NCBI GenBank assembly: GCA_946497695.1
Contig: CAMMLJ010000007.1
Coordinates: forward strand, 3,043-67,042
Source: an uncultured Clostridium sp.
GTDB lineage: Bacteria; Bacillota; Clostridia; TANB77; CAG-508
Length of the DNA stretch: 64,000 nt
Direction of reading: 5' to 3'
Numbering within the stretch: the first letter of the stretch is position 1; each line of letters begins with the position of its first letter. Below are positions 1,862-64,000 of this stretch, one piece after another. Below the pieces are notes generated by a model. The model saw nothing but the letters and a program-made list of their open reading frames with translations, searched no databases and was not told where the DNA came from. Position numbers and translations under genes: made by a program.

Positions 1862-1969
1862 ATTAGCAATCCTCGTTTTTTCTCAAATTATATACACTAT
1901 ATCATAAATTTCATTTTTTTTCTACAAACTAACAGTATTTCTCTCCAATTTTTCTATAATGTTATTTTT

Positions 1970-2632: not shown

Positions 2633-2651
2633 ATTTATCAACTCCAAAAGC

Positions 2652-2680
2652 ACTATAAAACAATTGTTTGTATTTGTCAA
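2652..2680 (-). promoter_or_regulatory. sigma-A-type promoter for the MazG-like/ASCH/R-M genes
   Basis: Minus strand reads TTGACA (2680..2675), a 17-nt spacer, then TATAGT (2657..2652), about 20 nt before the ATG at 2632. Confidence 0.45.
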
Positions 2681-16695: not shown

Positions 16696-17511
16696 TTAAG
16701 CAGATTTTAATTCTAGTCTTAACTTATCTGCAATCATTGCAATAAATTCACTATTTGTTGGTTTGCCTTTTGTAGCAGATACAGTATATCCAAATATATT
16801 TTCTACTTCATCTGCTTTTCCTCTACTCCATGCGACTTCTATTGCATGACGAATTGCACGTTCTACTCTACTTGGTGTTGTGTGAAATTTTTTAGCTATG
16901 TCAGGATATAATTGTTTTGTTATTTGATTTATTACTTCTATATCGTTTACTACCATCATAATTGCTTCTCTTAAATATTGATATCCTTTTATATGTGCTG
17001 GAACGCCTACTTCATGTATTAGGTTAGTTACTAATGCTTCTAAATTTCTTTCATCTTTCTTATTCTCTGGAGATATATCTATGTATTGTGGTTTGCTTTC
17101 TCTGGCAATAAAATTATTATTTTGACTCGGTTGATAATATTTTAAATCTCTTATTCTTTTTATTAAAAGTTCTATGTCAAATGGTTTTACAACATAATAT
17201 TGTGCACCTAATGATATAGCCTTTTGCGTAATTTTATCTTGACCTACTGCAGATAACATTATACTTATTGGTTTTTTTGTCATTGTTGTTTCATTAAGCT
17301 TTTCTAAAACTCCTATCCCATCTAAATGTGGCATTATTACATCTAATAATAAAATATCTGGATGAGTTCCTTTAATAATTTCAAAAGCTTCATTACCATC
17401 CTTTGCAATACCTACAACTTCAATATCTTCCATTTTCTCTAAATATGCTGATAAAGTCCTTGTAAAATCAATATTATCATCAGCAATTAATATAGTAATT
17501 TTTTCTTTCAA
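16696..17511 (-). CDS. spo0A: Stage 0 sporulation master regulator Spo0A
   Basis: Receiver domain ILIADDN...[19 protein letters not shown], plus the Spo0A-specific C-terminal effector domain [19 protein letters not shown]....[24 protein letters not shown] start with GGGGGAAG upstream. Confidence 0.97.
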
Positions 17512-27146: not shown

Positions 27147-27803
27147 TTATATATTATAACCACTTTTTTTGTCCAGTTTGTGAAAACATTTAAAATATTT
27201 ATTTATTTCTTTATATTTTTTGTTCTCTTTTATGATTATATGCCACATAAAAATAATTATAAAAACAATAGCTATATTTTTAAGATATAATATCCCGATA
27301 CTAGCTAATGCTGTAATAATGCTCATTATCGTATTATTAATTACATTAGTAATTCTATATGCCTCCATATTACCATAAATAATTCTTAATACTCTATTTA
27401 AGATTTGTCCTCCATCTAATGGATATATTGGTAATAAATTAAAAATCGCAATTAGCACATTTATATATACTGGTTCTGCCATATTATAAATCATAAAGAA
27501 AAATGCAATAACTATATTTGATATTGGTCCCATCAATAAAATAATTATTTTTTTTAAATTATTAAAATTTGATTTTTTAATCTTAGTATTATATTCTTCT
27601 TCTATTTCTTTAAAACATATAGATAATCCTAATGGCATAATTTTTATACTTTTAACTTTATATCCCAAAATTATACCTGTTAAAAGATGAAAACATTCAT
27701 GTATAATAGCAAATAGCATAAATAATATGTACATATCTATTTGATTTACTAGTAAAAAAATTATTGCTAGTAAAAATATTTTTATATCTACTTTAAATTC
27801 CAT
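27147..27803 (-). CDS. spoIVFB: M50 site-2 metalloprotease, SpoIVFB-like (short form)
   Basis: HExxH in a TM helix (AIIHECFHLLTG) and NLLPIYPLDGGQIL (NxxPxxxLDG). It sits directly downstream of an M23/LytM protein, as in clostridial spoIVFA-spoIVFB pairs. At 218 aa there is no room for a CBS domain. Confidence 0.55.
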   Translation of the reverse strand: MEFKVDIKIFLLAIIFLLVNQIDMYILFMLFAIIHECFHLLTGIILGYKVKSIKIMPLGLSICFKEIEEEYNTKIKKSNFNNLKKIIILLMGPISNIVIAFFFMIYNMAEPVYINVLIAIFNLLPIYPLDGGQILNRVLRIIYGNMEAYRITNVINNTIMSIITALASIGILYLKNIAIVFIIIFMWHIIIKENKKYKEINKYFKCFHKLDKKSGYNI

Positions 27804-48305: not shown

Positions 48306-48605
48306 TTATTCTGCTGATTCTTCAGATTCTTCGCTTTTTACTTCTTCTTCTACATCAGGAGTTTCGTTATATTTTTCAAGTATAGCACTTTGAATTTTCT
48401 CCCTTGTTTCAGCATTAATTGGATGAGCTACATCTCTAAACTCACCATTTTGAGTTTTTTTACTTGGCATAGCTATAAATAATCCATCTTTTTCGATAAC
48501 TTTTATGTCATGTACAACAAATTCATTATCGAATGTTACAGAAGCTACTGCTTTCATTTTGTTTCCTGAATTTACTTTCTTTAAACGTACATTTGTGATT
48601 TGCAT
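48306..48605 (-). CDS. spoVG: Septation/sporulation regulator SpoVG
   Basis: [69 protein letters not shown] is the canonical SpoVG sequence. Start moved to ATG 48605; the track start is a TTG inside the RBS region. Confidence 0.94.
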
Positions 48606-48820
48606 TTGAGCACCGCCTTCCAAAGTTTTAAATAATATTATTGTACATTTATATGTACAACTATATTATTCTTCAAAAAAAACTTTTTTCCTTCTATTTT
48701 TTCAAAATTATTTATTTTTTAACATTTTTGAAATATTTATCATAAAATAGTAATAATTATATTGAAAAAAAAACATAATAATTATATAATCTTACATGTT
48801 AAATATGGGAGGGGAATTTA

Positions 48821-50206
48821 ATGCCTAATCTTAACTTAATAAAAAAATATAATAGAGTACATATGATTGGAATCGGTGGTGTTAGTATGAGCGGAATCGC
48901 TGAAATTCTTAATAATTTTGGCGTTATTGTTACAGGTTCTGACTTAGCTGATTCAGAAATAGTAAAAAAATTACAAAGCAATGGTATTTCAGTTACAATA
49001 GGTCATGATTTTGAAAATTTAGCTAAGGCAGACATTGTTGTTTATTCTGCTGCAATAAATCCAAACGACCCTGAAATGCAAAAAGCAAAAGAGTTAAATA
49101 TTCCAACTTGTGAAAGATGTGACTTTTTAGGTATGCTTACAAAAGCATTTAATGACACTATTGGTATTTCTGGTACACATGGTAAAACCACAACTACATC
49201 ACTTGTTTCATTATGCTTTTTAGAAGCAGGCTTAGATCCAAGTATTCAAGTTGGCGCAATATTAAAAGCTATAGATGGAAATTATAAAGTTGGTTCAAGT
49301 GAACATTTTATAATAGAAGCATGTGAATATGTAGAAAGTTTCTTAAAGTTTTTCCCTAAAGCTGAAATTATCTTAAATATAGATAATGACCATTTAGATT
49401 ATTTTAAGACTTTCGAAAATATAAAAAATGCTTTCATAAAATATGTAAAAATAATTCCAGATAATGGTTTACTTGTGGTTAATGGCGATGACCATAATTG
49501 TTTGGACTTATTGCAATATACAAACGCGACTAAATTAACATATGGAATTACTAATAAAAATACTGACTTTTTTGCAGTTAATATTGTATTTGATAACAAT
49601 GGTTTTCCAGCTTTTGATATTTATAAAAAGGATAAATTTTTCGAAAGAATTCAATTAAAAATTCCAGGAATGCATAATGTACTAAATGCATTGGCATGTA
49701 CTGCCCTTTGTGATTATTATGGAATTGATAAAAAATATATAAAATCTGCTTTAGAAAAATTTACAGGTGCTCATAGAAGATTTGAATATAAAGGAACAAT
49801 TAATAATGCAACTGTTTTTGATGACTATGGTCATCATCCAACAGAGATAATAGCTACTGCAAAAGCTTTAATGAATAAAAAATATAATAAATCATGGGTT
49901 GTTTTCCAACCACATACTTATAGTAGAACTAAAACTTTATTAAATGATTTTGCAAAAGCATTATTAAATTTTGACAATATCATAGTTACAGACATATATG
50001 CAGCAAGAGAAACAAATAGATTTGGAGTTTCTTCTCAAGATTTAGTTGATAAAATTAACTCATTAGGAAAAAATGCAATTTATATGAAAGATTTTGATGA
50101 TATTACTAAATATTTAAAAGAAAATGTTAAAGAAAATGATATTATTTTAACATTAGGTGCTGGAACTGTAACACAAATTTCAGATGAAGTAGTAGAAGAG
50201 AATTAG
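48821..50206 (+). CDS. murC: UDP-N-acetylmuramate--L-alanine ligase
   Basis: VHMIGIGGVSMSGIAEIL, GISGTHGKTTTTS, DDYGHHPTEI. Confidence 0.96.
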   Translation: MPNLNLIKKYNRVHMIGIGGVSMSGIAEILNNFGVIVTGSDLADSEIVKKLQSNGISVTIGHDFENLAKADIVVYSAAINPNDPEMQKAKELNIPTCERCDFLGMLTKAFNDTIGISGTHGKTTTTSLVSLCFLEAGLDPSIQVGAILKAIDGNYKVGSSEHFIIEACEYVESFLKFFPKAEIILNIDNDHLDYFKTFENIKNAFIKYVKIIPDNGLLVVNGDDHNCLDLLQYTNATKLTYGITNKNTDFFAVNIVFDNNGFPAFDIYKKDKFFERIQLKIPGMHNVLNALACTALCDYYGIDKKYIKSALEKFTGAHRRFEYKGTINNATVFDDYGHHPTEIIATAKALMNKKYNKSWVVFQPHTYSRTKTLLNDFAKALLNFDNIIVTDIYAARETNRFGVSSQDLVDKINSLGKNAIYMKDFDDITKYLKENVKENDIILTLGAGTVTQISDEVVEEN

Positions 50207-51510: not shown

Positions 51511-51546
51511 TAAAAAAAATATAGATACTTTTTATAGTACCTATAT
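51511..51546 (-). terminator. Rho-independent terminator at the end of the Tad-like operon
   Basis: Minus strand: ATATAGGTACT-ataaaa-AGTATCTATAT followed by eight T. Confidence 0.8.
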
Positions 51547-51554: not shown

Positions 51555-53201
51555 TTATATTGAATTTAAAGATAAACTCTTATAAGAATTGCATCGTTCT
51601 CTAAATAAAGCTGTATAATACGCTTTTCTTATATTATTTGGTGCAGAATCTAAAATAGTGTCCAAATCAGTTATATTATTTCCTAAAGCATTGTCCATTT
51701 CATTACTTCCATTTGATGTAGTAATATCAGTTGATGTTACAATACATGCATAATCAGCGGTTGCATTACCATGAGGGAAATAATTCTTTGTTGTACTATC
51801 ATTTGAAACAAAACTTTGTGCATCAAAATCTGTATTTCTATATCCAATAATCTCTCCAGTAGGCGAAAAATCTATATGTCTAACATCATGATACTGATTA
51901 GCACTTCCTTGATCTAATATATATATTAATTTTGGATCTACAAATTCTCTATTTTTATTATTTGTTACTATGCTATAGCCCATGTAATATCCATTTCCTA
52001 TATTTTGACCTTGCATAAATGAAATCAAACAAGTATTGCTTAATATCAGACTCCATTCATTTTCTGTTAATGTTGGCATTTTTGCAGGATGAGTAGAATT
52101 TTCATTAAATTTCGCAATTGTTGTTCTTAAATTAGTTGTTATGGAATTTCTGATAACTTGTAATTTATGTGCATTAAAGTTATCAAGCATTGTTCCATCT
52201 GTTGCACTAAAATTTATTAAATTTTGTTCTCCTACATTACCTGTAATTCCTAAATCTTCTTGGTTTACATCAACAATATCTTTTAATTGAATATCTTGTA
52301 AAATATTTTTTATTTGATTTGTAAAAGAATACGCATCTTGTAAGTATTTCTGTGCACTTGTATCTCTTTGGTAAGAGGTACCTAATTGATTTAACATATT
52401 TTCATCAACTTCATTAGTAGTTCCATCAACATTATATTTATACCATCTACTGCCATTCCAATATGCTTTTTCTCTTCTTCCATTTGCATTAGTAAAATAT
52501 GTATAATTTACTTTTTGTGGAGAAATTTGATTAGCTTCAAAACTTGTACGGTTTACTTCAGCTAATGCTTCATTATCTATAGAAATCCCATCATATGTAG
52601 TTCCTGATTCATTAGTTTTTGAAGTATCTATTAAAAAACCTGAATATGTTTGATAATTACCTGAACTATCTTTATAAAACACAGTTATATAATTATCTAA
52701 TGTATAATTTATTACTATATCTCTGTTTCCTTTTTTATATCTAGCTGAATAATATATATATGGTTTTAATCCTGTAGTTGAATCTGCAGAATTTAAATTA
52801 ACAGTAATATCACCTTCTGAATCTCTTCCTGTTACAACATTATTATATTTTGTATATATATAATAACCATCATACAATGTATATACCAATGCTGGTATAT
52901 AACTTTGTAATTCTTCTTCTGAATATCCACTTTGTCCAAAATTTGTAGCTAAAGAGTTATAAAATGTTGTTACAGAAGCCTCAACATCTCTTATTTTTTC
53001 TTGGGCTATATTTTGTGTTGTACTATTTAATTCGTTAATTTGAAATGCTTTTATTGCATCATAAGTTGCATTATTTAAAATAGTATCATAATTTCCCTGT
53101 AAATTAACGTAATTTATTTGCACTTGAATATATAAAGACATTACTAATACTATCGGTATAACAATAATAGAAAATATTACTATCCAGCTTTGTAATTTCA
53201 T
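51555..53201 (-). CDS. Hypothetical 548-aa N-terminally anchored extracytoplasmic protein (last gene of the Tad-like locus)
   Basis: Single N-terminal TM helix (WIVIFSIIVIPIVLVMSLY), then a T/N/S/Y-rich body. No family recognised. Confidence 0.5.
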   Translation of the reverse strand: MKLQSWIVIFSIIVIPIVLVMSLYIQVQINYVNLQGNYDTILNNATYDAIKAFQINELNSTTQNIAQEKIRDVEASVTTFYNSLATNFGQSGYSEEELQSYIPALVYTLYDGYYIYTKYNNVVTGRDSEGDITVNLNSADSTTGLKPYIYYSARYKKGNRDIVINYTLDNYITVFYKDSSGNYQTYSGFLIDTSKTNESGTTYDGISIDNEALAEVNRTSFEANQISPQKVNYTYFTNANGRREKAYWNGSRWYKYNVDGTTNEVDENMLNQLGTSYQRDTSAQKYLQDAYSFTNQIKNILQDIQLKDIVDVNQEDLGITGNVGEQNLINFSATDGTMLDNFNAHKLQVIRNSITTNLRTTIAKFNENSTHPAKMPTLTENEWSLILSNTCLISFMQGQNIGNGYYMGYSIVTNNKNREFVDPKLIYILDQGSANQYHDVRHIDFSPTGEIIGYRNTDFDAQSFVSNDSTTKNYFPHGNATADYACIVTSTDITTSNGSNEMDNALGNNITDLDTILDSAPNNIRKAYYTALFRERCNSYKSLSLNSI

Positions 53202-53241
53202 CTTAATTCCTTTCTTTACTTTTGTAACTCTTTAATCTCTT

Positions 53242-53283
53242 TTATTATACAAGAAAAATTGTTAAATTTTTCTTGTATAATAA
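53242..53283. repeat. Perfect 19-bp inverted repeat with a 4-nt loop, intergenic within the Tad-like locus
   Basis: TTATTATACAAGAAAAATT-gtta-AATTTTTCTTGTATAATAA. Confidence 0.9.
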
Positions 53284-53328
53284 AAGAAAAAGGTGTTTTT
53301 TACAAGACACCCCTTATTTCTTTTTATT

Positions 53329-53862
53329 TTAATTTCTTCCATTAACAGTAACAATTCCTCCATTTGAAGTCCCTATTGTTGAAGAGTCATTTCCTGTTAC
53401 TCTATAGAAGAAGTTTCTTAATAATTGAGAAATTGTTGTGTTTGTATTTTTTACACTAACAGATACAAAATCTCCTTCTTTTAAGTATTTAGTATTATTA
53501 TTACTTGCATCATTTAAGTCTTCCATAATTTGTGTAGTATATTCTGTATAATAAACATTCTCACCTATTTTTTCATAGGCTGTTTGTGCTGTTTTCTTTC
53601 CTGGGTTTTCATCTAATACTTTTACTTCAATTTCTACATCATATGTATTTCCTGTAGCATTTATCTCTTGCACAAACCTATTATATTCTGCTAATGTTAT
53701 TCTTCCTGTAGAACGAATATTGTCTACAAATGTAGTTGTACTATTTTGAACAGATAATTGTGAAACATCATCACTACGATCAGCAACTGACATTAAGGGA
53801 AAAATAAACATTAATACAGCTGCTAATACTATAGCTAAAATTGTTACTACTGTATCTCCCAT
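53329..53862 (-). CDS. Hypothetical N-terminally anchored protein (minor pilin-like/accessory, Tad-like locus)
   Basis: MGDTVVTILAIVLAAVLMFIFPLMSV hydrophobic N-terminus, AGGAGG RBS, position in the locus. Confidence 0.45.
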   Translation of the reverse strand: MGDTVVTILAIVLAAVLMFIFPLMSVADRSDDVSQLSVQNSTTTFVDNIRSTGRITLAEYNRFVQEINATGNTYDVEIEVKVLDENPGKKTAQTAYEKIGENVYYTEYTTQIMEDLNDASNNNTKYLKEGDFVSVSVKNTNTTISQLLRNFFYRVTGNDSSTIGTSNGGIVTVNGRN

Positions 53863-53891
53863 TTTTATTACCTCCTATTTCCCTTCTTTTA

Positions 53892-54479
53892 TTATTTTAA
53901 CGTATATGTTATTACTCTTTTATATTGTTTATTTATATCTGGAACTAATTCATTTGTATCTTGATCTTCTTCATAATCTTCTATTGTACCTAGTTTTTCT
54001 TCGAATTGTCTATCTTTGTATGATGGTTGCAATAAAAATTCAACCACATCATCTACATGTTGCTTTATCTTTGTAGTATTTCCTCTCCATTCTTCATATT
54101 TAGTTACACCATTTTCTTCCCAATGTTCTGTGTCTAAATCCAAATCATTTTTCTTAACATGGATTCCATTTTGCATTTGACCACTTTCGTATACATTTAA
54201 TGGTGAACCGTCTGAATTATAGAATTGAACTGCATAATCTTCTTGAGCATATCTATATAATGTTGGAATTATATCTGATAATGTAACTGTTCGAGAAAAT
54301 GCTTTTGTTTCACCTTCTGCAAGTTCTACATATTGGTAAGTTTCTTGTCTATCTTGGTTCTTTACTAAACTATCAGCAGTTGTTTTTGCTTGTGTTAGAG
54401 TAACCATGGTAATTGATAGTGCAATTATAAATAATAGCATAAATCCTGCCATTTTTAATGCTTCTACTGCATTCTCCAT
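53892..54479 (-). CDS. Pilin-like protein, MENA-family paralog 5 (divergent)
   Basis: MENAVEALKMAGFMLLFIIALSITMVTL: shared N-terminal motif plus a hydrophobic helix. 195 aa. Confidence 0.5.
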   Translation of the reverse strand: MENAVEALKMAGFMLLFIIALSITMVTLTQAKTTADSLVKNQDRQETYQYVELAEGETKAFSRTVTLSDIIPTLYRYAQEDYAVQFYNSDGSPLNVYESGQMQNGIHVKKNDLDLDTEHWEENGVTKYEEWRGNTTKIKQHVDDVVEFLLQPSYKDRQFEEKLGTIEDYEEDQDTNELVPDINKQYKRVITYTLK

Positions 54480-54501
54480 GATTACTCCTCCTTAATTTAA
54501 A

Positions 54502-54906
54502 TTATTTTGCTTCAACTGTCATTGCTGTTACATAACCTTTATATTGTCCGTCTTGTGTTTGATATCCTGTAATTTTTACTTCGTATTGACTTGTTGGTTG
54601 ATAACTATTTTTCTCTGTTGCTAATGATGCATTATCACTTTTTCCATTAACCGAGATTTGTCCTAATGCTGGCATTCTTTGATTATTATTTCTTACTGCA
54701 TCTATTAATGCTTTTGCTTGTGTTCCATTTATTGTTCCCTCATAATTTTGGAATGTAGAATTATGTGCCTCTACTTGTTGGTTTGATAAGTCATCCATAT
54801 TTGTTGCACTTCTTGCTTGGTTAAAAATATACACTCCTAATGCTATAATCAAAATTGCAAGTAATATTGCTCCTGCTATAATTAATGCTTTTGATGCATT
54901 CTCCAT
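54502..54906 (-). CDS. Pilin-like protein, MENA-family paralog 4 (candidate major subunit, tandem duplicate)
   Basis: MENASKALIIAGAILLAILIIALGVYIF... 134 aa. The first 116 coding nt plus the RBS are identical to the upstream paralog. Confidence 0.55.
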   Translation of the reverse strand: MENASKALIIAGAILLAILIIALGVYIFNQARSATNMDDLSNQQVEAHNSTFQNYEGTINGTQAKALIDAVRNNNQRMPALGQISVNGKSDNASLATEKNSYQPTSQYEVKITGYQTQDGQYKGYVTAMTVEAK

Positions 54907-54923
54907 AATTTATTCCTCCTCTG

Positions 54924-55346
54924 TTAATTTTTCTTTGTTACCTTCATTTTTGTAACATAGCCTTTATATTGTCCATCTTGTGTTTGATATTCTGTAATAG
55001 ATACTTCGTATTGACTTGTTGGTTGATAAGTATTTTTTTCTGTTGCTAGTTTTGCATTATCTTTTAAACCTGTACCACTAACACCATCAACTGTTATTTG
55101 TCCTAATGTTGGCATTCTTTGATTATTATTTCTTATTGCATCTATTAATGCTTTTGCCTGTGTTCCATTTATTGTTCCCTCATAATTTTGGAATGTTGCA
55201 TTATGTGCTTCTACTTGTTGATTTGATAAATCATCCATATTTGTTGCACTTCTTGCTTGGTTAAAAATATACACTCCTAATGCTATAATCAAAATTGCAA
55301 GTAATATTGCTCCTGCTATAATTAATGCTTTTGATGCATTCTCCAT
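54924..55346 (-). CDS. Pilin-like protein, MENA-family paralog 3 (candidate major subunit, tandem duplicate)
   Basis: MENASKALIIAGAILLAILIIALGVYIF... 140 aa. Strong GGAGGAATAAATT-ATG RBS. Confidence 0.55.
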   Translation of the reverse strand: MENASKALIIAGAILLAILIIALGVYIFNQARSATNMDDLSNQQVEAHNATFQNYEGTINGTQAKALIDAIRNNNQRMPTLGQITVDGVSGTGLKDNAKLATEKNTYQPTSQYEVSITEYQTQDGQYKGYVTKMKVTKKN

Positions 55347-55403
55347 AATTTATTCCTCCTTTGTTCTTCAAAAATATATATTAAAGAACCTTATTAACTA
55401 AAT

Positions 55404-55835
55404 TTAAGATATTTGTTCAATATATAAATAACTTATCCTTTTGTTGTTTTTATGATATTCAACTTTTGTACATTTAAATTGTATATTACTATAATTATTT
55501 ACTAAATTAGGAATCTCTCCCGCATTTAATGTTTCCATACTGTATGTCTTTTGTGTATCTGTCATATATACATCTACTCTTACAGAATATAAATCATCTG
55601 GAACATACTTTCCCGACTCATCTTTAGCAATATCATACTTTTCATTATTATCTATTGCCAAATTAATAATTGTTGCAAGTTCTGTTCCAAAAAATTCTTG
55701 ATTTATATATTGTGAAAACTGATTATTAAATTTCTGAACTTGATTTATATCATTTTTATACATTGAATATGCATATGTAATTGATATAACTATACAAATT
55801 GCTATAACACAAATTATTATTATTGTCCTTTTCAT
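55404..55835 (-). CDS. Hypothetical N-terminally anchored small protein (Tad-like locus)
   Basis: ATG 55835. MKRTIIIICVIAICIVISITYAY TM helix. No MENA motif. Confidence 0.45.
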   Translation of the reverse strand: MKRTIIIICVIAICIVISITYAYSMYKNDINQVQKFNNQFSQYINQEFFGTELATIINLAIDNNEKYDIAKDESGKYVPDDLYSVRVDVYMTDTQKTYSMETLNAGEIPNLVNNYSNIQFKCTKVEYHKNNKRISYLYIEQIS

Positions 55836-55913
55836 ATGCACCCTTTCTAATATTATACCATTATTCTACAAGTTTTGTAAATATTTTTAAAACAATAAAA
55901 CTGTTAATTTTTG

Positions 55914-56348
55914 TCAAACTTTTGTAAAGATAACTGTACTTATTACACCTTCTGTTTCTGATACGTTACATTTAAACATGGTACCTGCTTTTGCATGTAT
56001 CTGTAATAGATTAGTAATTTCATTATTATCTAAATTTTGCAAGTTTGAATTTTCTCCTAAAATTGATACTCTTATATACCCTTTATCACCAGGATTTAAA
56101 TTTAATGATTTATTATTATCTTTTGCTTTATTTATAACGGAAACAACATCATAAATTGTATTTTCATCAGATCCTTCATATCTTGTATATTCATTATTAG
56201 CTTCTGCTAGTTGTCTTTCATTTATCCTATCATACATATCTTCTGCATAACTACCATAAGAAGTAAAAAGATATACAAATAAAGAGGCAACCATAATTGC
56301 TATTAGCATTCCACCAGCTATTATAAGTGCTTTTGACGCATTATCCAT
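55914..56348 (-). CDS. Pilin-like protein, MENA-family paralog 2
   Basis: MDNASKALIIAGGMLIAIMVASLFVYLF... followed by ..QLAEANNEYTRYEG, which parallels ..QVEAHNSTFQNYEG of paralogs 3 and 4. Confidence 0.5.
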   Translation of the reverse strand: MDNASKALIIAGGMLIAIMVASLFVYLFTSYGSYAEDMYDRINERQLAEANNEYTRYEGSDENTIYDVVSVINKAKDNNKSLNLNPGDKGYIRVSILGENSNLQNLDNNEITNLLQIHAKAGTMFKCNVSETEGVISTVIFTKV

Positions 56349-56377
56349 AATTTAGTTGCCCTCCTTTTTTACAAAAT

Positions 56378-57025
56378 CTATTTAGTTTCTTCAAAAGACA
56401 TACTTGATACCCTACCATTATCAAAAAATGTTGTCTCTGCATGCTTAAATTTCATTCTCTTAAATTGTACATATTGGTAATATATTTTTGCAGCTTCTTG
56501 TAAGTCAGTCCAATTTACAGATGTATTAACATTTAATTCTGTACACAACTTTTGAAAAGACTCTGAACTATTACTACTTGCTTTTGCTAAATATTCCCAC
56601 TGCGAATCAGAAATTTTCCCATTATATTTAGTTGAATTTGTTGTTTGATTCATTACACTCTCAATTCTTGAATTTATTGTAGATAAATTATATGTTCCTT
56701 TAACAAATAAATTGTCTGTAGAACCTGATAACTCTTGAATTTTTACTGTTAAATTCATAGTTCCATAATTACTATATTTTACATCATCACTAATATTATA
56801 ATCGCTCATCTTATTTACAAGACCTAATAATTCACTACCATATAAAACTTTTTCATAAGATAAATAACTTTTATTAAAATCTTCTACTTTTTGAACTTCG
56901 ACCTCTTCTTGTTGCATTCTTTGACTATCGCCCCAATGAGTAAAGACATAATATACTAATACTGCAAGCATAACTGCAATTAAAACTCCACCAGCAATAG
57001 TTAATGCTTTTGATGCGTTCTCCAT
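56378..57025 (-). CDS. Pilin-like protein, MENA-family paralog 1
   Basis: MENASKALTIAGGVLIAVMLAVLVYYVF... 215 aa. ..KVEDFNKSYLSYEK parallels the post-helix motif of the other paralogs. Confidence 0.5.
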   Translation of the reverse strand: MENASKALTIAGGVLIAVMLAVLVYYVFTHWGDSQRMQQEEVEVQKVEDFNKSYLSYEKVLYGSELLGLVNKMSDYNISDDVKYSNYGTMNLTVKIQELSGSTDNLFVKGTYNLSTINSRIESVMNQTTNSTKYNGKISDSQWEYLAKASSNSSESFQKLCTELNVNTSVNWTDLQEAAKIYYQYVQFKRMKFKHAETTFFDNGRVSSMSFEETK

Positions 57026-57043
57026 ATTTTTTCTCCTTTACTT

Positions 57044-59116
57044 TTACATGTTTGACATTGTAGTAAATGAACTTGACATACTTGTTAAACCTATAAATAC
57101 TAATGGTGCAATTAAATATCCAACAAACATACATACCATAGGAGCGAAACCAATTCCTTTTCCAATTAAGCCTTTGTTAGAAATTAATCTGTCATTAGAT
57201 TCTTTTCTCTTAGCTTGGTAGTAGTCTCTTTCTGTATCTAATTCATCAAATGCTTCTACAATAGGTATCTTTTCTACTGCAGCTTGAAGACTTTCTACAA
57301 TTCTTATCATATCTTGATATGATATATCTTCTTTTAATTGTTCTAGAGCTTCCCATGCTCCAGCTTCATAGTTATTAACACACTTACTAATTGGCTCTTT
57401 GAATATATTAGCATATCTTTCTAGCCATTCTAAAATCATTTCAACATTTACTCTTTCAATTCTCATAAGCATTAATATAATTGTTTGGAACTGCATTACT
57501 TCGTTTTCCATTTCCATTTGTCTCATTTTCTTTTGGAATATTAAAAGTAATATTGGAAAAGCATATCCAATTAATCCAAATACCAATCCTATCAATATTT
57601 CAAACCATTTTAAATATTCTCCATTAATTGTTTGCAGCTTTTCATATATTCTTTCTGAATCAGTAGCTAATGTATCTTCTGTAGCCCCTTCGTAATATTC
57701 TGATCTCTGCATTGCTCTTAATATATCATCTTGTGTCGCTGTTAAATTTCCTCTAAACATGTCCAAGAAAATATTATCTATCCTAGTCGTCTCAATAGCT
57801 TCCTGTTCATCTGCCTCACCCATTGCCCCCATTAGATCATAATCAGTAGTCGGTTCGGTATATATATAATTAACTTGCAATTTATGTAAATATATCATTA
57901 TTATTATTGATGCTATAAAAACTACTATAAACAAAACTATTCTATTTACATACACCCAAGAGAGTTTAAGTGGTGATGCTGCATCTTTTAATAATTCTTT
58001 TTGTTTTCTATAATCTGTTGATCCTTCTTTTGGAATAAATAGGTCAACAAATTTCTTAATTGGTTTCTTTTTATATAATTTTTCCTGCCATGGGTTCTCT
58101 GTATTTTGTGTTTTTGTATTAACTGAACCATTATCTTTTAATTTTCTAGTAAGTGTATAACAAATGAATGTTAATACAATTACTAATATTTGTACAATCA
58201 TCCCTTGTTTTCCCATGTAGAAACTCTTTGTAAATGAGAATTGGCTTACAGACCAATTCTTTATCATTTCTAAGAATAGCATCGGTACAATAGAAATTAC
58301 AGATAAACTTTGGAAAACATAATCTAGTTTATCTCTTTTTAAAATTTCTAGTTGCATTTCCTGTGTTATATTATTTAAGTTCTTTAAATATAAAGAAGCT
58401 CCATCTTTCTTTCTGTCACCATATTCTTTTGTTAAGTAAGAAATTCCTGCAAATTCCTTTAAATAACTATTTGGTGCCACATCATAATACTTTTCCAATT
58501 CCATTTCTGGATCATCAGAAATTAATATTTCATAAATTTTTTCTGCTTGTCTTGAAACTTCTAATTCATTATCCTGTGCTGTTTGATATATTGCTTCCTC
58601 TACCATGTTAAATTCATGGTATGCGTGTCTTATTTCTCCAAAGAAGTTAATTTGTTGTTTTAACAAATTATTATCAATTTTATCTACCATTCCATCTATC
58701 ATACTATCCATTATGAAGATTTCAAAAATTATTAAAATTCCTAGTAACAAAAAATTAGTGTAAGTAAGCCATATAATAACAATAGTAAAAGGTATAACAA
58801 TTACTAAACCTTTTGTTAATATTTGTGAAGCTTGTTTTCTTGTCAAATATTCATCATCTATATTTAATATTTCCAATCTTCTACGTAATTTTAATAAATA
58901 ACGTTTTATAAGTGGAATTTTTCTATATTTTAAATATAGTCTTTGAAATATAATATCTGCAGAAAATGTTGACTTCTGTGTCCCTCTTCTTAATTGCTGT
59001 ATTTGTTTGTATTGGGAACTTTGCATTTTTTTCCTAATTTGCAAATAAGCGATAACAATTATTAGAAAAACAACACCTATTGCTATAAGAAAATATAATA
59101 ATACTTGATTTGACAT
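57044..59116 (-). CDS. Polytopic platform protein, apparent TadB-TadC (two T2SS-F-like modules) fusion
   Basis: 690 aa. It has two cytoplasmic helical modules, each followed by TM helices. The second (NEVMQFQTIILMLMRIERVNVEMILEWLERYANIF...GAWEALEQLKEDISYQDMIRIVESLQAAVEKIPIVEAFDELDTERDYYQAKRKE) follows the TadC/GspF-domain pattern. It sits directly after the ATPase gene. Confidence 0.6.
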   Translation of the reverse strand: MSNQVLLYFLIAIGVVFLIIVIAYLQIRKKMQSSQYKQIQQLRRGTQKSTFSADIIFQRLYLKYRKIPLIKRYLLKLRRRLEILNIDDEYLTRKQASQILTKGLVIVIPFTIVIIWLTYTNFLLLGILIIFEIFIMDSMIDGMVDKIDNNLLKQQINFFGEIRHAYHEFNMVEEAIYQTAQDNELEVSRQAEKIYEILISDDPEMELEKYYDVAPNSYLKEFAGISYLTKEYGDRKKDGASLYLKNLNNITQEMQLEILKRDKLDYVFQSLSVISIVPMLFLEMIKNWSVSQFSFTKSFYMGKQGMIVQILVIVLTFICYTLTRKLKDNGSVNTKTQNTENPWQEKLYKKKPIKKFVDLFIPKEGSTDYRKQKELLKDAASPLKLSWVYVNRIVLFIVVFIASIIIMIYLHKLQVNYIYTEPTTDYDLMGAMGEADEQEAIETTRIDNIFLDMFRGNLTATQDDILRAMQRSEYYEGATEDTLATDSERIYEKLQTINGEYLKWFEILIGLVFGLIGYAFPILLLIFQKKMRQMEMENEVMQFQTIILMLMRIERVNVEMILEWLERYANIFKEPISKCVNNYEAGAWEALEQLKEDISYQDMIRIVESLQAAVEKIPIVEAFDELDTERDYYQAKRKESNDRLISNKGLIGKGIGFAPMVCMFVGYLIAPLVFIGLTSMSSSFTTMSNM

Positions 59117-59141
59117 TTAAGGTTTGTACACCCCTTTCTTA

Positions 59142-61094
59142 TTACTCTTTTGTCTTTCTTGGTCTTCCTGCTCTTCTAACAGTTTTAGCTTCTTCTGCAT
59201 TTTTTGAAGTTACTTTTGAAGTGCCCCAATGATCTTCTATAAATTTATCAAATTCTGCTAAATCTTTATCATCCATATTTAGTCTCATTTCTTGTATGTT
59301 ATGATCTGTAATTTTATTTGTTATAACATATTCTCCGTCATGATATTCCATAATGTTTCTATATGTATATAATTGTTTATTTGTTATCTTTGTAAAATAA
59401 TGTGTTGCATTATCAAAGAATTTTTCAAACTTACCTTCTAATGTTTTTTCATTTCTAAAATCGAATGTATATTCATTTTTTTCTTCTACAGGTATACATT
59501 CTGTAACTCTTTCTATATATCTTCTACCTCTAAAGTCTTTTACTAAGTGAATATCAAAATTTAATACTTGTACAACTTGTTCTTCTGCTGTTTTTTCATT
59601 TGTGAACACACCAGTTCTGAGCATTGAGTTTCTTAATGCTGTAACCAAATCTGGGAATGTTTTAGCATGGTGTGTAAATAATGTAAACTTAGAAGCAACC
59701 TGAGCTGCTTGAATCATCCAAGAAGCAACAGGGTCAGTTGCAACCTCACCTATGATATTAACAGAACCATCAGTCTTTTTCTGAACGTCCAATCCCTCTT
59801 GTCCAGAAATTGTTTCTGTTTCTCTAAATGTTAAAATATTTCTTGTAGGATAAATTTTTCTTAAGTGAAGCTCAAATGCAGTTTCCTGAACCCTTATGTT
59901 CATTGTTTCATAAATATTTTCTATCATACCCATAAGCATTGTTGTTTTACCACAACCTTGCTCACCAGTAAGTGAAACTATACGTGCACCTTTTACTAAA
60001 TATTTTAATAATGAAATTGCATCTTCTTTTCCTGGTATTGTAATTAATTGTTCAAGTGTAGCACGTTTTACATCGAATTTTCTTACGAAGAAAGCCCATG
60101 TTTCAGAAAAACTTGGTCTAACAACAACAACACGAGAACCATCTTTCATTTCATTAATCTTATAACCATTTGTATCTGACAATTGTCCTGGGTTATTGTA
60201 TTTATAAATATTTTGACAAACTCTTTTTAGTTCTGCTTCTGAACCAAAAGAAAGAAAAGCTAAACGTATAGATTTACCTTGGAAGAATATCCAAATACTA
60301 TCACAAGCACGTGGTACTTTATGTTCCATAACTTCGTTTAAATAGTCACCATCTGTTTGTGCAACTTGGCTTAAAAAACTTTCTGGAAGTCCAGATACAC
60401 CACCAGATACACCATCTATATTCATATCTCTTATTTCATCTATAGAACTATATCCTTTATAATGTTGATAAATTCTTTGTACTACTACATTTAATTTATC
60501 TGAGAATGTAAGTACAAAACCTTCTCTTTCATATATATCATTTATTTCTTCCTCTGTTATTACATAACAAGGTTTAGCATCTCCTGCTACATATTTTAAT
60601 GTATCTAATTCATATTTCTTTATTAATTCTGTTAATGCTTCATATCCAAATTCTTTTTTATACATATATATAATAATATCGAACTTGTCTTGTGGTGTAA
60701 GTAATGAAGGAATATCAAAAGGAATTGACTTTGAAATATTTGTTTCATCTACTCCATACTCTTTTGAAAGTATGTCATAAATTAATTCTTTTACATATTT
60801 CTTATCATTAACATCTCCATATGTACAGCCTTTTAAAGCCTTTTTCAATTCATATTTTTTGTTTTTTCTTCTTTTTAATTCTTCTTCTGTTAGCCCTAAA
60901 TCATATAAATTTATTTTTGTTATTTCATCAAGTCTTTTCTTGATATATTCAGTCATCTTTTGTAAAGTATATGTTTGATCATCAACATCTACTAGTTTTT
61001 CTACTTCTGCATTCTTTTTCTTCTGTATATTTCTATATACTAAATACACAAATACTAAGGCAACAGCTAGTATTAATACAATATTAAGAATCAT
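59142..61094 (-). CDS. CpaF/TadA-type secretion ATPase with an N-terminal TM helix and a C-terminal AT-hook-like tail
   Basis: Walker A LTGEQGCGKTTML. DGSVNIIGEVATDPVASWMIQAAQVASKFTLFTHHAKT matches the CpaF pattern D.I.IGE.R..E......QA...G....T.HA. N-terminus MILNIVLILAVALVFVYLVY. C-terminus ..KTVRRAGRPRKTKE. Confidence 0.85.
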   Translation of the reverse strand: MILNIVLILAVALVFVYLVYRNIQKKKNAEVEKLVDVDDQTYTLQKMTEYIKKRLDEITKINLYDLGLTEEELKRRKNKKYELKKALKGCTYGDVNDKKYVKELIYDILSKEYGVDETNISKSIPFDIPSLLTPQDKFDIIIYMYKKEFGYEALTELIKKYELDTLKYVAGDAKPCYVITEEEINDIYEREGFVLTFSDKLNVVVQRIYQHYKGYSSIDEIRDMNIDGVSGGVSGLPESFLSQVAQTDGDYLNEVMEHKVPRACDSIWIFFQGKSIRLAFLSFGSEAELKRVCQNIYKYNNPGQLSDTNGYKINEMKDGSRVVVVRPSFSETWAFFVRKFDVKRATLEQLITIPGKEDAISLLKYLVKGARIVSLTGEQGCGKTTMLMGMIENIYETMNIRVQETAFELHLRKIYPTRNILTFRETETISGQEGLDVQKKTDGSVNIIGEVATDPVASWMIQAAQVASKFTLFTHHAKTFPDLVTALRNSMLRTGVFTNEKTAEEQVVQVLNFDIHLVKDFRGRRYIERVTECIPVEEKNEYTFDFRNEKTLEGKFEKFFDNATHYFTKITNKQLYTYRNIMEYHDGEYVITNKITDHNIQEMRLNMDDKDLAEFDKFIEDHWGTSKVTSKNAEEAKTVRRAGRPRKTKE

Positions 61095-61115
61095 TTTTGA
61101 AACTCCTTCCTAAAC

Positions 61116-61949
61116 TTATCTCATCATTTGCATTTCATCTATTTTATATAAAATTCCTTGGATTAACTCTTTTACATCAAGTAAAAATTTTGCATTTCTA
61201 TCTTTATCTGATATTGTCTGCATTTTTAAGAAATAATCCACAACTAATCCTTCATCACATGCATCAGAAAATAAAGTATTGTATACTATTGGGAATAATG
61301 AATCCTTAGTTTTTATTGTTCTTATAATATTTTTTTGAGTATATTTAGAAAATTTGTCATATCTTCCAATATATCCAACAATATTATTCATTTTTGAAGT
61401 ATAGCCTTCTTTTCTAGATTTAGCATAATTCTCTATAGAATGACGTTTTTGTGTCATTCCATAAACAAGTACATCAGAAATCGTTAAAATATCTTGCGCT
61501 AGTTCATTTATTCCTTTTTTTAAATCCACAAGTACTATATCATACACCATACTAGCTTTTTTGATTAGAGATACATAAAAAGCATCAATTGTAGGTGTTT
61601 CTACTCCATCATATCCTGATAATACTTCTAGTCTATCTTTAAAAATTATCCCTGTATAATCTTTTATTAATTCTGGAGACAATTTATTGCTTCCTTCTAT
61701 TTTCATTAAACCTGTAACTCCAGATTCAATTCCTACCGATTTTTTAGTTAAATTTAATAAAGATAATAAATTAGTTTTTTGTGCTTTTGGTTTTAAATAT
61801 GCAGCCTCAAATTCTTTATTATTTTCATATGTGGAAATTAACAACACTTTTTTATTGTGTTGTATAGCCATTTGTGTAGCCACAGCAATCGCTGTTGAAG
61901 TTTGTCCTGTTTCTTTATCATCCTCTGTCCAAAAAGATACTATAGCCAT
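61116..61949 (-). CDS. ParA/MinD-fold protein with a degenerate P-loop (TadZ/CpaE-like)
   Basis: IVSFWTEDDKETGQTSTAIAVATQMA..KKVLLIST aligns with IAV.S.KGGVGKTT.A.NLA......KVLLID, with the P-loop Lys replaced (GQTS). YDIVLVDLKKG resembles Walker B. Confidence 0.5.
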   Translation of the reverse strand: MAIVSFWTEDDKETGQTSTAIAVATQMAIQHNKKVLLISTYENNKEFEAAYLKPKAQKTNLLSLLNLTKKSVGIESGVTGLMKIEGSNKLSPELIKDYTGIIFKDRLEVLSGYDGVETPTIDAFYVSLIKKASMVYDIVLVDLKKGINELAQDILTISDVLVYGMTQKRHSIENYAKSRKEGYTSKMNNIVGYIGRYDKFSKYTQKNIIRTIKTKDSLFPIVYNTLFSDACDEGLVVDYFLKMQTISDKDRNAKFLLDVKELIQGILYKIDEMQMMR

Positions 61950-61968
61950 TTTACTCTCCTTTTCAAGA

Positions 61969-62652
61969 TTAAATTTCTTTCATTATTTTCCTTACCATAA
62001 GGCCTTGAAGTTTAGGATCTATCTTGGCAACTACAAATTCCATTCCATCTTTATACATACTTGTCAAATTCTCAAATCTAACTTTTGCTACTTTTTGGTT
62101 ATTTATAATCGCTGTTTTATCTCCCATTTCCAAAGGAAAATATATTCTGTCATCTTCCCACATAACTTTTGAGCCTAATGATAAATAATTTAAATAGTCA
62201 TCATCTTCTTTTGTAACTTCTTTTGCAAATAATACTTTTGTCATTTTTATTGGATTTGGAAAGCCATTTAAAATTTCTAGTCCTCTTCTAACATCATATG
62301 TATCAAAAGATGTTACAAAAAAGTTTTGTACTGCTTTATCTATTTTAAAATTCATTGCACTTTCAGCATTATCTATATCAACCAAAACATAATCATATTC
62401 TAATGTTTCTATACTTCTATTCGTATAATCTGCTATTCCTTCTATATTTTTAAATCCAACTGCAATATCTATTTCTTCAAATTCTGTTATATAAGACAAA
62501 GTAGGATTTAGTGCAGGCACAACATATTTTGCTTTTTGAGTAATTGTTGTATCTGCAATTAATACTTTTTGGCCTAATACAGTTAGAATTTTAGCAATAT
62601 ATATAATTAAATCCGTTTTATCAAAAGCTCCTATAAATCCTACTTCTTTCAT
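61969..62652 (-). CDS. Second ParA/MinD-fold-like protein, P-loop more degenerate
   Basis: VGFIGAFDKTDLIIYIAKILTVLGQKVLIADTT and YDYVLVDIDN keep the fold pattern but not KGGxGK[ST]. Confidence 0.4.
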   Translation of the reverse strand: MKEVGFIGAFDKTDLIIYIAKILTVLGQKVLIADTTITQKAKYVVPALNPTLSYITEFEEIDIAVGFKNIEGIADYTNRSIETLEYDYVLVDIDNAESAMNFKIDKAVQNFFVTSFDTYDVRRGLEILNGFPNPIKMTKVLFAKEVTKEDDDYLNYLSLGSKVMWEDDRIYFPLEMGDKTAIINNQKVAKVRFENLTSMYKDGMEFVVAKIDPKLQGLMVRKIMKEI

Positions 62653-62670
62653 ATTTCCTCCTAATTCAAA

Positions 62671-63696
62671 TTAATTTACTGTACTTGTATCTGTTGTAGT
62701 TGCTGTGTTTCCAGCGCTTGTAGTTGCACTTGCTGCAGCTGCATCTTCAAGCGATTGCAAATATTGTTGTCTTAATTCTTTTTGTTGTGTAATATGTTCT
62801 TCTACAGAAGTTTCTAAATTAGATTGTCTATCTTCTGCATCAACACTATTTATTTGTCCATTAATAAAGTTTTCTCTTAAAGTACGATTATATCTATTTG
62901 CTATAGCTGCTTTTGCTTCTTCTACTATATTTGGATTCGAATCCATTAAGTTAAGTGCTTCTGCATTTACTGGATATGTTGGTGTTGCTGCTACTTGCAT
63001 TCCTGGATCTGTGTATCTTGTTACATACATTTCAGCTGTTGATAACTGATATGTTTCTATGATTGCACTTGACATAGAAATTGTTTCATCTTCTGATAAA
63101 TTTATAGTAATTACTCCTTCTGCTGGCGCTCCTGCAATCTCTGGAATTGTTACTTGTTTCTTAGCCACAACTATGTAATCTTGTCCATTTCCAAAACGTA
63201 TACGAACATCTACAAAATCGCCATCTACTAAATCTGTAGGTAATGACAACATATTATACTCTTGTCTTCTCAAGTCATTTGTAACTTGTTCTGAACTTGT
63301 TGTTAACATATCTTTAGTTAAAATTGTTCCTGCTTTTAAATCTATTTTTGCAACTATATCTGATCTTGGTTGAGTTAAACCTTCGTCAGAATAGAAATCA
63401 GATGAAGTTGCTACATTCTCTGGCACTACAGCACCATCTGCTTCTTCTTGTTGTATATTAGGTATTCTAGATGTGTCTCCTTCTATCGCTGAAATCTGCA
63501 CTCCTGAACCTGAAGATATATCTTCAGATACAACATATACAACTCTTTTAGCTGCTTCTAGCGCATCTTGTTCCTTTTTTAAATTAATTAATTGCATAAA
63601 TAGTAAAGCAATTACTATTGCTGCTATAATTAACATTACTAACATTCCTAATAAAAATGATACTCTTTTTTGTCTTTGCATTGGATTTGAAGCCAT
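62671..63696 (-). CDS. cpaB: CpaB/RcpC-like Flp-pilus assembly protein
   Basis: N-terminal TM helix. VYVVSEDISSGSGV... and IDLKAGTILTKDMLT.....LSLPTDLVDGDFVDVRIRF...DYIVVAKKQVTI follow the SAF plus RcpC beta-clip pattern (..pGd.VDv...). Low-complexity A/T/S tail. AAGGAGG RBS. Confidence 0.72.
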   Translation of the reverse strand: MASNPMQRQKRVSFLLGMLVMLIIAAIVIALLFMQLINLKKEQDALEAAKRVVYVVSEDISSGSGVQISAIEGDTSRIPNIQQEEADGAVVPENVATSSDFYSDEGLTQPRSDIVAKIDLKAGTILTKDMLTTSSEQVTNDLRRQEYNMLSLPTDLVDGDFVDVRIRFGNGQDYIVVAKKQVTIPEIAGAPAEGVITINLSEDETISMSSAIIETYQLSTAEMYVTRYTDPGMQVAATPTYPVNAEALNLMDSNPNIVEEAKAAIANRYNRTLRENFINGQINSVDAEDRQSNLETSVEEHITQQKELRQQYLQSLEDAAAASATTSAGNTATTTDTSTVN

Positions 63697-63826
63697 TTAT
63701 TATTCCTCCTTAAATAATTAAAATTCAATATAATCTGATTTTATTTTACAACACTCTACCTTTTAAAACAATATATAGCATAATTTCGTAATCTAAATAT
63801 AATATTTTTGTAATAAAGTAGTAATA

Positions 63827-64000
63827 TTATATAACAATATTTTCTAACGCTTTTGCTACCCCATCTTCATCATTTGTTGTAGTTATAAAATCAGCAACTT
63901 GTTTAACTTGTTCATTGCTATGTCCCATGGCAATTCCCATACCAGCATTTTTTATCATAAGTATATCGTTATTATTATCTCCAAGTGAAATAACTTCTTC
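63827..64000 (-). CDS. Cof-type HAD-IIB phosphatase (3' end only; ORF enters from beyond nt 64000)
   Basis: Own translation: EEVISLGDNNNDILMIKNAGMGIAMGHSNEQVKQVADFITTTNDEDGVAKALENIVI-stop. GDxxNDxxM...G.AMgNa....K..A...T..N.edGVA is the Cof/YidA C-terminal signature. Confidence 0.8.
   Translation of the reverse strand, partial: EEVISLGDNNNDILMIKNAGMGIAMGHSNEQVKQVADFITTTNDEDGVAKALENIVI

Follow-up and report, generated by a model that had tools for sequence, protein, structure and literature searches.

The window analyzed here, a 64-kb stretch of contig CAMMLJ010000007.1 from an uncultured Clostridium sp. (TANB77; assembly GCA_946497695.1), contains a ~12-kb locus for a candidate Tad-type type IV filament machine. 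The locus comprises 13 open reading frames (ORFs), all on the minus strand and running from 63696 to 51555, which are numbered g1–g13 in transcription order. The gaps between them are 17–127 bp, and a purine-rich ribosome-binding site (RBS) precedes each start. A preliminary description of the sequence had listed these genes in the same order, and all 13 ORFs were found with the coordinates, strand, and lengths that it gave (145 aa in the case of g8). Judging from the N termini of its orthologs, the g8 start is most likely the ATG at 55835 rather than the GTG at 55841, and g8 is listed from that ATG below. N-terminal hydrophobic segments are present in g1, the ATPase g4, the platform protein g5, five pilin-like proteins, g8, g12, and g13. 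The genes are:

62671..63696, minus strand: g1, bitopic CpaB/RcpC-like protein, 341 aa, with a SAF domain and one N-terminal transmembrane (TM) segment
61969..62652, minus strand: g2, predicted ParA/MinD-fold protein, TadZ-like, 227 aa, with a degenerate Walker A motif (GAFDKTD)
61116..61949, minus strand: g3, predicted ParA-fold protein, CpaE-like, 277 aa, with a G-x-T P-loop lacking the lysine
59142..61094, minus strand: g4, predicted hexameric motor ATPase of the CpaF/TadA lineage, 650 aa, with T2SSE and CpaF matches
57044..59116, minus strand: g5, polytopic platform protein, predicted TadB-TadC fusion (hhalign), 690 aa
56378..57025, minus strand: g6, pilin-like paralog 1, 215 aa, starting MENASKALTIAGG, with the N-terminal motif and one TM segment
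55914..56348, minus strand: g7, pilin-like paralog 2, 144 aa, starting MDNASKALIIAGG
55404..55835, minus strand: g8, small protein, ~143 aa, hydrophobic at its N terminus and lacking the MENA motif
54924..55346, minus strand: g9, pilin-like paralog 3, 140 aa, candidate major subunit, with KALIIA at position 6
54502..54906, minus strand: g10, pilin-like paralog 4, 134 aa, candidate major subunit
53892..54479, minus strand: g11, pilin-like paralog 5, 195 aa, starting MENAVEALKMAG, a variant with an acidic residue at position 6
53329..53862, minus strand: g12, N-terminally anchored protein, 177 aa, candidate minor subunit or assembly factor
51555..53201, minus strand: g13, large, variable, N-terminally anchored protein, 548 aa, candidate tip or minor subunit

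The catalytic motifs of g4 (Walker A with K383, the Asp box, Walker B, and the His box) are all preserved, and the protein scores 25.6 bits against Pfam T2SSE, for which the cutoff is 24.9. With g4 itself as the phmmer query, the best match in the PDB is CpaF (E 2e-9), compared with E 0.14 for VirB11. A family profile built from 11 sequences likewise ranks CpaF first (E 2.5e-16, 62 bits), ahead of archaeal GspE (E 2.7e-5, 26 bits), FlaI (E 2.9e-4, 22 bits), VirB11 (E 3.1e-4, 22 bits), and PilT/PilB (E ~0.01); matches of g4 to the NCBIfam VirB11 and TrbB models have E values of 0.04 or worse. By this score ranking, on which the lineage assignment is based, g4 is placed, as the preliminary description had proposed, in the CpaF/TadA lineage and not with VirB11, and its identification as a conjugative VirB11 ATPase (22 bits versus 62 for CpaF) is rejected. 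An N-terminal TM anchor and an N-terminal extension of roughly 240 aa are further features of g4. The anchor is also present in the other TANB77 versions and in those of Butyrivibrio and Lysinibacillus, but is missing from four of the six plasmid-borne homologs described below; the membrane attachment noted for this ATPase thus holds for g4 without being a trait of the family.

No match was found for g5 in Pfam (T2SSF included), NCBIfam, or PDB sequences. In early tests with profiles run against the PDB and with a two-sequence TadB/TadC profile (hhalign E 0.083 and 0.016) the result was not significant, and neither was a test for an internal repeat (E 0.012–0.017). A clear signal was obtained only with an eight-sequence TadB/TadC profile, compiled from the Tad loci of Rhizobium, Thermoanaerobacterium, Clostridium, and Alicyclobacillus and aligned to a 114-sequence g5 family profile. 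Both halves of g5 match it separately, the N-terminal half with Prob 96.7% and E 4e-10 over 223 columns and the C-terminal half with Prob 94.4% and E 9e-8 over 140 columns; reversed-sequence controls gave E 0.01–0.04. The N-terminal half favors the set of sequences from the TadB position and the C-terminal half that from the TadC position. On these profile comparisons g5 is a TadB-then-TadC fusion in the canonical gene order, which agrees with the single fused polypeptide described before. Since the halves match TadB and TadC separately, a secondary fusion within Tad is indicated, not the retention of an ancestral, unsplit archaeal platform (cf. Denise et al., 2019). The g5 family is large and unnamed: an exhaustive profile search returned 1231 clusters at 50% identity, of which 595 have E ≤1e-30, and most of the best 150 matches are 630–700 aa long.

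The three genes upstream of the ATPase encode putative counterparts of Tad accessory proteins. The Pfam SAF domain is matched by g1 itself with E 0.015 and by five of 13 members of its family (best E 5e-7), and NCBI labels the plasmid orthologs “SAF domain-containing”; the g1 profile has no match in the PDB, and the Pfam RcpC model gives none either. For g2, no curated family matches the protein itself, and the alignment of its family profile with MinD (4v02; E 7.5e-4) is confined to the N-terminal 36 residues. The g3 protein matches Pfam AAA_31 below the cutoff (E 1.8e-3), and its family profile matches a ParA-family ATPase (3ea0) with E 1e-5. The family-level evidence therefore bears out both the CpaB/RcpC-like first gene and the two ParA-fold proteins with degenerate P-loops of the preliminary description. 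In the corresponding cluster of another TANB77 species, which is considered below, the equivalent of g1 was assigned to COG3745 with structural homology to CpaB, and the equivalents of g2 and g3 were assigned structural homology to TadZ and CpaE, respectively (Kim et al., 2024; PMC11680825).

Close relatives of g4 number in the thousands in public metagenomes, all of them in metagenome-assembled genomes of gut Clostridia, on contigs of up to 1.8 Mb. When one genome of each GTDB species was scanned, at least 587 stretches were found to encode a g4 relative; the ortholog counts and identities given here refer to the best 80 of these at least 587 stretches, which represent 80 species-level genomes with g4 78–99% identical. 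All 80 loci are from uncultured gut Clostridia, including Ca. Merdicola, presumably a member of TANB77. Each of the 13 genes is present in 69–80 of the 80 loci, and the arrangement of g1–g13 is not due to chance, because the gene order recurs across these species-level genomes. Four loci that were mapped have an identical order, with genes that by eye resemble a ribosome hibernation factor, a small acid-soluble spore protein (SASP), and a HAD protein on one flank, and spoIVB and murC (names likewise read by eye) on the other. Median identity to the window is 82% for the ATPase, 69% for the ORF read as MurC, 67% for the platform, 60% for g12, 55% for SpoIVB, and 52% for g2, and falls to about 30%–40% for the pilin-like proteins and g13 (~31% for g6 and ~39% for g7). 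Constraint on the motor is thus stronger than on a housekeeping enzyme (the ORF read as MurC), whereas the putative exposed subunits evolve rapidly; judged from these identities, the pattern fits a conserved motor that serves surface-exposed, diversifying subunits.

The five pilin-like paralogs (g6, g7, g9, g10, and g11) share the N terminus MENA[SV][KE]AL. Among 259 such MENA-type ORFs in the 80 loci, with one to six copies per locus, M1, N3, A4, and A7 never vary, and E2, L8, A11, and L15 are 95%–98% conserved. This N terminus consists of only seven polar residues (MENA[ST]KA) followed by a hydrophobic helix of ~22 residues, and it lacks Gly(−1)/Glu(+5). Each ORF opens at the first start codon that follows an in-frame stop, which leaves no room for a longer leader. 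The pattern [KRDE][GA][ALIFQMVED][ILMVTAS]x3, which we take to be the archaeal class III pattern of FlaFind (Szabo et al., 2007), occurs at position 6 in 200 of 215 g6/g7/g9/g10-type proteins. Glu2 was considered as a universal stand-in for the Glu5 of canonical pilins, a proposal weakened by the plasmid homologs starting MSTNASKAL, MDSVTKAI, and MGGSLSEGL, which lack Glu2. The genes g9 and g10 form a tandem duplicate with 91% DNA identity, the same RBS, identical first ~115 coding nucleotides, and a 15-nt indel in one copy, which suggests that the gene for the candidate major subunit was recently duplicated or underwent gene conversion.

An AlphaFold2 (AF2) model of g10, built from a 71-sequence alignment (predicted local distance difference test [pLDDT] score 84), consists of a 52-residue helix (residues 2–53) followed by a small alpha/beta head; as modeled, this is the “lollipop” architecture of pilins. 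None of 6977 g10 homologs has a Pfam domain. Below the Pfam threshold, 17 of 71 members of the g10 family match DUF515 (best E 3.9e-5), which we take to be an archaeal family, and 6 of 71 match DUF7288; distant kinship with pilin-like proteins of archaea could explain these matches, as could mere similarity of TM helices.

The remaining small proteins are less uniform. The g8 gene is kept in 75 of the 80 loci, its orthologs start MKKF or MRKF, and a signal peptide was predicted for its published equivalent, protein 934 (Kim et al., 2024). The MENA motif is also absent from g12 and g13. Homologs of g12 occur in all six annotated plasmid modules (E 3e-25 to 1e-7), and its match to Pfam Arch_flagellin reaches only E 0.055. 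For g13, which ranges from 548 to 876 aa across species, no match was found in Pfam or NCBIfam; the parts that it has in common with plasmid homologs of 311–366 aa are the N-terminal ~180 aa and a segment at ~340–420. The family profiles of g10, g12, and g13 showed no significant similarity to one another.

Neither a Flp-like small ORF nor a polytopic A24-like ORF occurs among the ORFs of the 64-kb window, and no tadV is adjacent to the locus. ORFs of at least 120 codons with at least three TM segments were scanned for the A24 peptidase motif G.[GA]D[VIALFTM][KR] across 1.8 Mb, comprising the window, the 80 orthologous loci, and ten plasmid loci; the sole match was the positive control, Rhizobium TadV. 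No prepilin peptidase is annotated in the plasmid loci, and Pfam found none among the conserved upstream plasmid genes, which had been considered as candidates for a hidden peptidase. Processing by signal peptidase I was rejected as a general explanation, given that the hydrophobic segments of the window pilins exceed 20 residues and that no AxA site is seen in them by eye. A signal peptidase I gene (lepB) does end the module of one C. botulinum plasmid (L087:21684-22172) and was not seen in the other loci. The missing Flp-like pilin and the missing linked peptidase thus both stand as described previously, but the lack of a linked peptidase was overstated as an atypical feature, since all MSH loci also lack one (Denise et al., 2019).

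The locus is, gene for gene, the published conserved pilus cluster of TANB77. Kim et al. (2024; Nat Commun, PMC11680825) reported a 10–14-gene pilus cluster in 122 of 129 TANB77 species, exemplified by proteins 927–938 of HRGM_Genome_2725, which are 358, 231, 280, 640, and 693 aa long and are followed by seven N-terminally anchored proteins, the last two of 178 and 621 aa. From eggNOG, topology, and structure searches, these were labeled CpaB, TadZ, CpaE, TadA/CpaF with one TM helix, TadC/TadB-like, and seven “pilin-like” proteins. The gene order, near-equal lengths (341/227/277/650/690 … 177/548 in the window), and assignments agree in a comparison made by order, length, and topology, not by sequence, and both hosts are uncultured, low-GC, small-genome gut Clostridia. 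The two clusters differ in species and in that the window has five MENA-type paralogs; in addition, Table 1 of that study places TadC first and TadB second, whereas here the N-terminal half of g5 is TadB-like and the C-terminal half TadC-like. By position, g13 is the ortholog of 938. Recombinant 938 (“pilin 938”), produced in E. coli BL21, activates dendritic cells via TLR4 and improves anti-PD-1 efficacy in mice, and its N-terminal 25% bears a partial structural resemblance to TadE/PilV (Kim et al., 2024). A peptidase is not mentioned by Kim et al. (2024).

Because the cluster was described in 2024, the finding of this locus is itself already known, and the earlier view of a poorly described branch of unknown function has to be given up: the cluster has been published and annotated by component, and the ortholog of its last gene has been tested experimentally (Kim et al., 2024). 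The pilus cluster is the signature trait of TANB77, an uncultured gut order that has been linked to better checkpoint-blockade responses, and the last-gene ortholog is reported as the active TLR4-stimulating molecule (Kim et al., 2024); what the cluster actually produces is therefore of practical interest. New here are the plasmid-borne modules beyond TANB77, the TadB-then-TadC order of the fusion, and the stronger conservation of the ATPase relative to the ORF read as MurC.

A tblastn search with g5 revealed a homologous module on 35 Bacillota megaplasmids, with hosts in Paenibacillus, Thermobacillus, Cohnella, Alkalihalophilus, Sporosarcina, Cytobacillus, Lysinibacillus, Butyrivibrio, and Clostridium (C. 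argentinense, C. botulinum, and C. beijerinckii). Example modules are L084:9326-24355 and L087:7975-22172, and plasmids with the module include C. argentinense pRSJ17_1 and C. botulinum plasmids. The plasmid ATPases are 35%–58% identical. Six annotated plasmid loci have a common core of a SAF protein, two ParA-like proteins, the ATPase, and a ~680-aa platform protein, together with one or two pilin-like proteins (N termini MSTNASKAL, MDSVTKAI, MGENARKAL, and others) and homologs of g12 and g13. The modules are usually followed by an SLH or cell-wall-binding protein, a giant DUF5704 protein, and GGDEF and HD genes, and some are near conjugation-type genes. By these sequence matches the module is not exclusive to TANB77, and the published statement that the cluster is “exclusive to TANB77,” which was judged on gut genomes only and at ≥50% similarity (Kim et al., 2024), is therefore qualified. 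The plasmid modules were not found described in the literature on DUF5704 and on Tad of Paenibacillus megaplasmids. A phage origin of the module was rejected, with one weak match (25% identity) in 50,697 phage records. Modules are carried by plasmids of Paenibacillus polymyxa (strain M1), Lysinibacillus sphaericus (C3-41), Alkalihalophilus pseudofirmus, Butyrivibrio proteoclasticus (B316), and Clostridium botulinum/C. argentinense; as these are cultured and partly tractable Bacillota, the biology could be tested without cultivating TANB77. The C. botulinum plasmid pOsaka2020-1 also has a separate, more canonical Tad-like locus (L088:7938-13573) with split genes of TadB/TadC size and with small prepilins in which a KKGG/LSxLL cleavage motif is clear, unlike the MENA-type proteins.

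Compared with canonical Tad/Flp systems (Caulobacter Cpa, Aggregatibacter Tad, and Rhizobium plasmid L083), the locus shares a CpaF-lineage ATPase followed by TadB- and TadC-type platform modules, a predicted ParA-fold protein resembling TadZ/CpaE, and, encoded first at the 5′ end, a SAF protein like CpaB/RcpC. In contrast to these systems, the platform here is a single polypeptide, the ParA-fold proteins number two and have degenerate P-loops in both cases, and the ATPase is TM anchored with a long extension at its N terminus. The canonical Tad loci used for comparison do carry the Flp G/xxxxEY motif, whereas this locus has no 50–70-aa Flp with that motif, no TadE/F/G by sequence, and no linked TadV; its putative subunits are instead 134–215 aa long with a predicted globular head. 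The secretin is also missing, as expected of a monoderm.

Resemblances to archaeal type IV pili (Epd-like and others), which have class III signal peptides, are the short leader of at most seven residues, the [KR][GA]-hydrophobic pattern without Glu+5, the predicted globular subunit, and the sub-threshold DUF515 and DUF7288 matches. However, g4 is much closer to CpaF (62 bits) than to archaeal GspE (26 bits) or FlaI (22 bits), and the separate matches of the g5 halves to TadB and TadC indicate a secondary fusion. Tad has been inferred to descend from an Epd-like archaeal system (Denise et al., 2019). Tad-like loci of Gram-positive bacteria, including Clostridia, that lack Flp have been described as having no recognizable prepilin signal and genes distant from other tad genes (Imam et al., 2011; PMC3244431). 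The present locus is similar in both respects, a likeness that does not imply a shared lineage, and differs in that those loci were reported with tadV and none was found here.

Taken together, these observations make it probable that g1–g13 specify a divergent type IV filament machine of the Tad type (related to type IVc) in a monoderm member of the Clostridia, in line with the Tad/CpaF-type filament locus of the preliminary description. In such a machine, the ATPase g4, which is membrane tethered in this clade, would drive the g5 platform, which in turn would extract the bitopic pilin-like proteins from the membrane via their long N-terminal helix and stack them into a surface filament. The major subunits would be g9 and g10, with g6, g7, g11, and probably g12 as minor subunits and g13 as a large, variable tip or accessory subunit. 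The catalytically degenerate g2 and g3, putative TadZ/CpaE counterparts, may act as scaffold or localization factors, and the CpaB/RcpC counterpart g1 may form a conduit through the wall. If the subunits are processed at all, cleavage would follow K6-A7 and be carried out by an A24 peptidase whose gene lies elsewhere. In the gut, the machine probably serves to attach the cell to host or particle surfaces.

Several results weigh against this interpretation. No filament has yet been observed, and electron microscopy is absent from Kim et al. (2024). The bacterial prepilin signature [GA]x4[ED] occurs in the first 14 residues of only two of 286 pilin-like ORFs, both from the g6 group, and no A24 peptidase was found within 10–12 kb in ~90 loci. 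The putative subunits match no curated pilin family in Pfam or NCBIfam, in agreement with the earlier remark that they could not be placed in a family; profile searches thus did not assign the small proteins to canonical Flp or TadE families with a normal cleavage motif. The lack of a TadE/TadF signature was likewise corroborated, with no Pfam TadE match and with hhalign E values of 0.07 or worse for the g10, g12, and g13 families against a TadE-like set. A fold search with the g10 model retrieved no similar solved structure (best E 2.6), and the AF2 model of g5, made from a shallow 51-sequence alignment (88% mean column identity), was poor (pLDDT 50) and was not used for a fold search. The matches of g1, g2, and g3 are weak when the window proteins themselves are the query, and the proximity of plasmid modules to conjugation-type genes would fit a role in DNA transfer. 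With non-canonical subunits and no linked peptidase, “pilin” therefore stays an inferred designation, although the machinery is a true Tad derivative.

The plasmid context bears most directly on an alternative in which the locus produces a short pseudopilus or mating pilus that, instead of mediating adhesion, serves to transfer or take up DNA in a conjugation-associated or competence-like process. Besides the occurrence of the module on 35 megaplasmids, this would be consistent with the Thermobacillus pTHECO01 module, ~8 kb from a type IV secretion system coupling-protein gene and a replication-relaxation gene, with the Butyrivibrio pCY186 module, which adjoins NlpC/P60, cell-wall hydrolase, and single-stranded DNA-binding protein (SSB) genes, with the C. 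argentinense module, which adjoins a C40 peptidase and a JAB-domain protein, and with the best NCBIfam model for g4, “TadA family conjugal transfer-associated ATPase” (E 5.6e-8, far below cutoff). However, MOB-suite classed all 35 plasmids as non-mobilizable, and the four mapped TANB77 loci have housekeeping/sporulation flanks in which no relaxase, coupling protein, ComEA, or ComEC was seen. The genes for wall-anchored giant proteins, GGDEF, and HD proteins that follow the plasmid modules suggest surface or biofilm biology instead, and we regard a DNA-transfer role as unlikely.

The properties of the subunits raise a different question, whether the pilin-like proteins are cleaved and polymerized at all. 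They could instead be bitopic parts of an envelope-spanning secretion or assembly complex, comparable to the piston of a type II secretion system (T2SS) or to PilN/PilO-type alignment proteins, and never be cleaved. In favor of this are the very short cytoplasmic N termini and the lack of a canonical prepilin cleavage motif, of a linked peptidase, and of a fold match to solved pilins. Against it stand the continuous 52-residue N-terminal helix of the g10 model, which is typical of pilins, and the one to six fast-diverging paralogs per locus with the recent tandem duplicate, which resemble exposed filament subunits; the remaining machinery, moreover, is that of an assembling Tad system, and we give this possibility little credence. 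SpoIIIAA is also a T2SSE-family ATPase, and SpoIVB is encoded downstream in the conserved chromosomal neighborhood, with an ORF upstream that resembles a SASP by eye, so that a sporulation-associated channel or feeding-tube complex (SpoIIIA-like) using a T2SSE-family ATPase was considered. We judge it highly improbable: g4 is specifically CpaF-like, g5 is TadB/TadC-like, the module occurs on plasmids in many different contexts, and some TANB77 species are without the cluster (Kim et al., 2024).

Within the Tad-type filament interpretation, a more far-reaching variant is that this lineage across Bacillota assembles a type IV filament that needs no dedicated A24 peptidase, from subunits that are essentially leaderless (M-E-N-A-S-K-A-L and then the helix). 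The role that the processed N terminus and Glu5 have in canonical pilins would then fall to the conserved N-terminal residues. We consider this proposal doubtful; if true, it would break the rule of four universal components (pilin, peptidase, ATPase, and platform).

Outside the 13 genes, the following features were noted:

63826-64000, minus strand: 3′ end of an upstream gene, on the same strand as g1–g13
63697..63825, minus strand: 129-bp AT-rich spacer 5′ of g1, with the g1 RBS AAGGAGG, the presumed operon promoter region
55881-55852, minus strand: promoter-like element before g8, TTTACA-18-TGgTATAAT, strong and sigma-70-like with an extended −10
53240-53315: weak hairpin with a T-run between g12 and g13, followed by the TGTATAAT element
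51511..51546, minus strand: AT-rich hairpin followed by T8, a probable intrinsic terminator read directly from the sequence
48821-50206, plus strand: ORF read as MurC (putative), downstream of g13

Promoter-like matches in the spacer 63697..63825 are weak and not above those in shuffled sequence. The preliminary description of a single operon with RBSs throughout and a terminator at its end is upheld in part. The purine-rich RBSs are present, but a single transcription unit can only be inferred, because promoter-like and weak terminator-like elements lie before g8 and between g12 and g13. The hairpin at 51511..51546 with its T8 run is also present, but is AT-rich and too poor in G+C for the rule of our terminator scan (three G-C pairs), which did not report it. 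The elements at 55852-55881 and 53240-53315 perhaps define internal transcription units for subunit genes and g13.

SpoIVB is encoded downstream of g13 (Pfam S55, E 1e-87) and is the only one of the sporulation-type genes around the locus that was verified by profile. The others, recognized by eye, are ORFs resembling a Spo0A-like response regulator, a SpoVG-like protein, and an HExxH polytopic protease (16696-17511, 48306-48623, and 27147-27803). At the left end of the window (1-2680), an ORF resembling a C5-cytosine DNA methyltransferase (FAGAGG motif) is accompanied by small ORFs, possibly a restriction-modification or mobile island.

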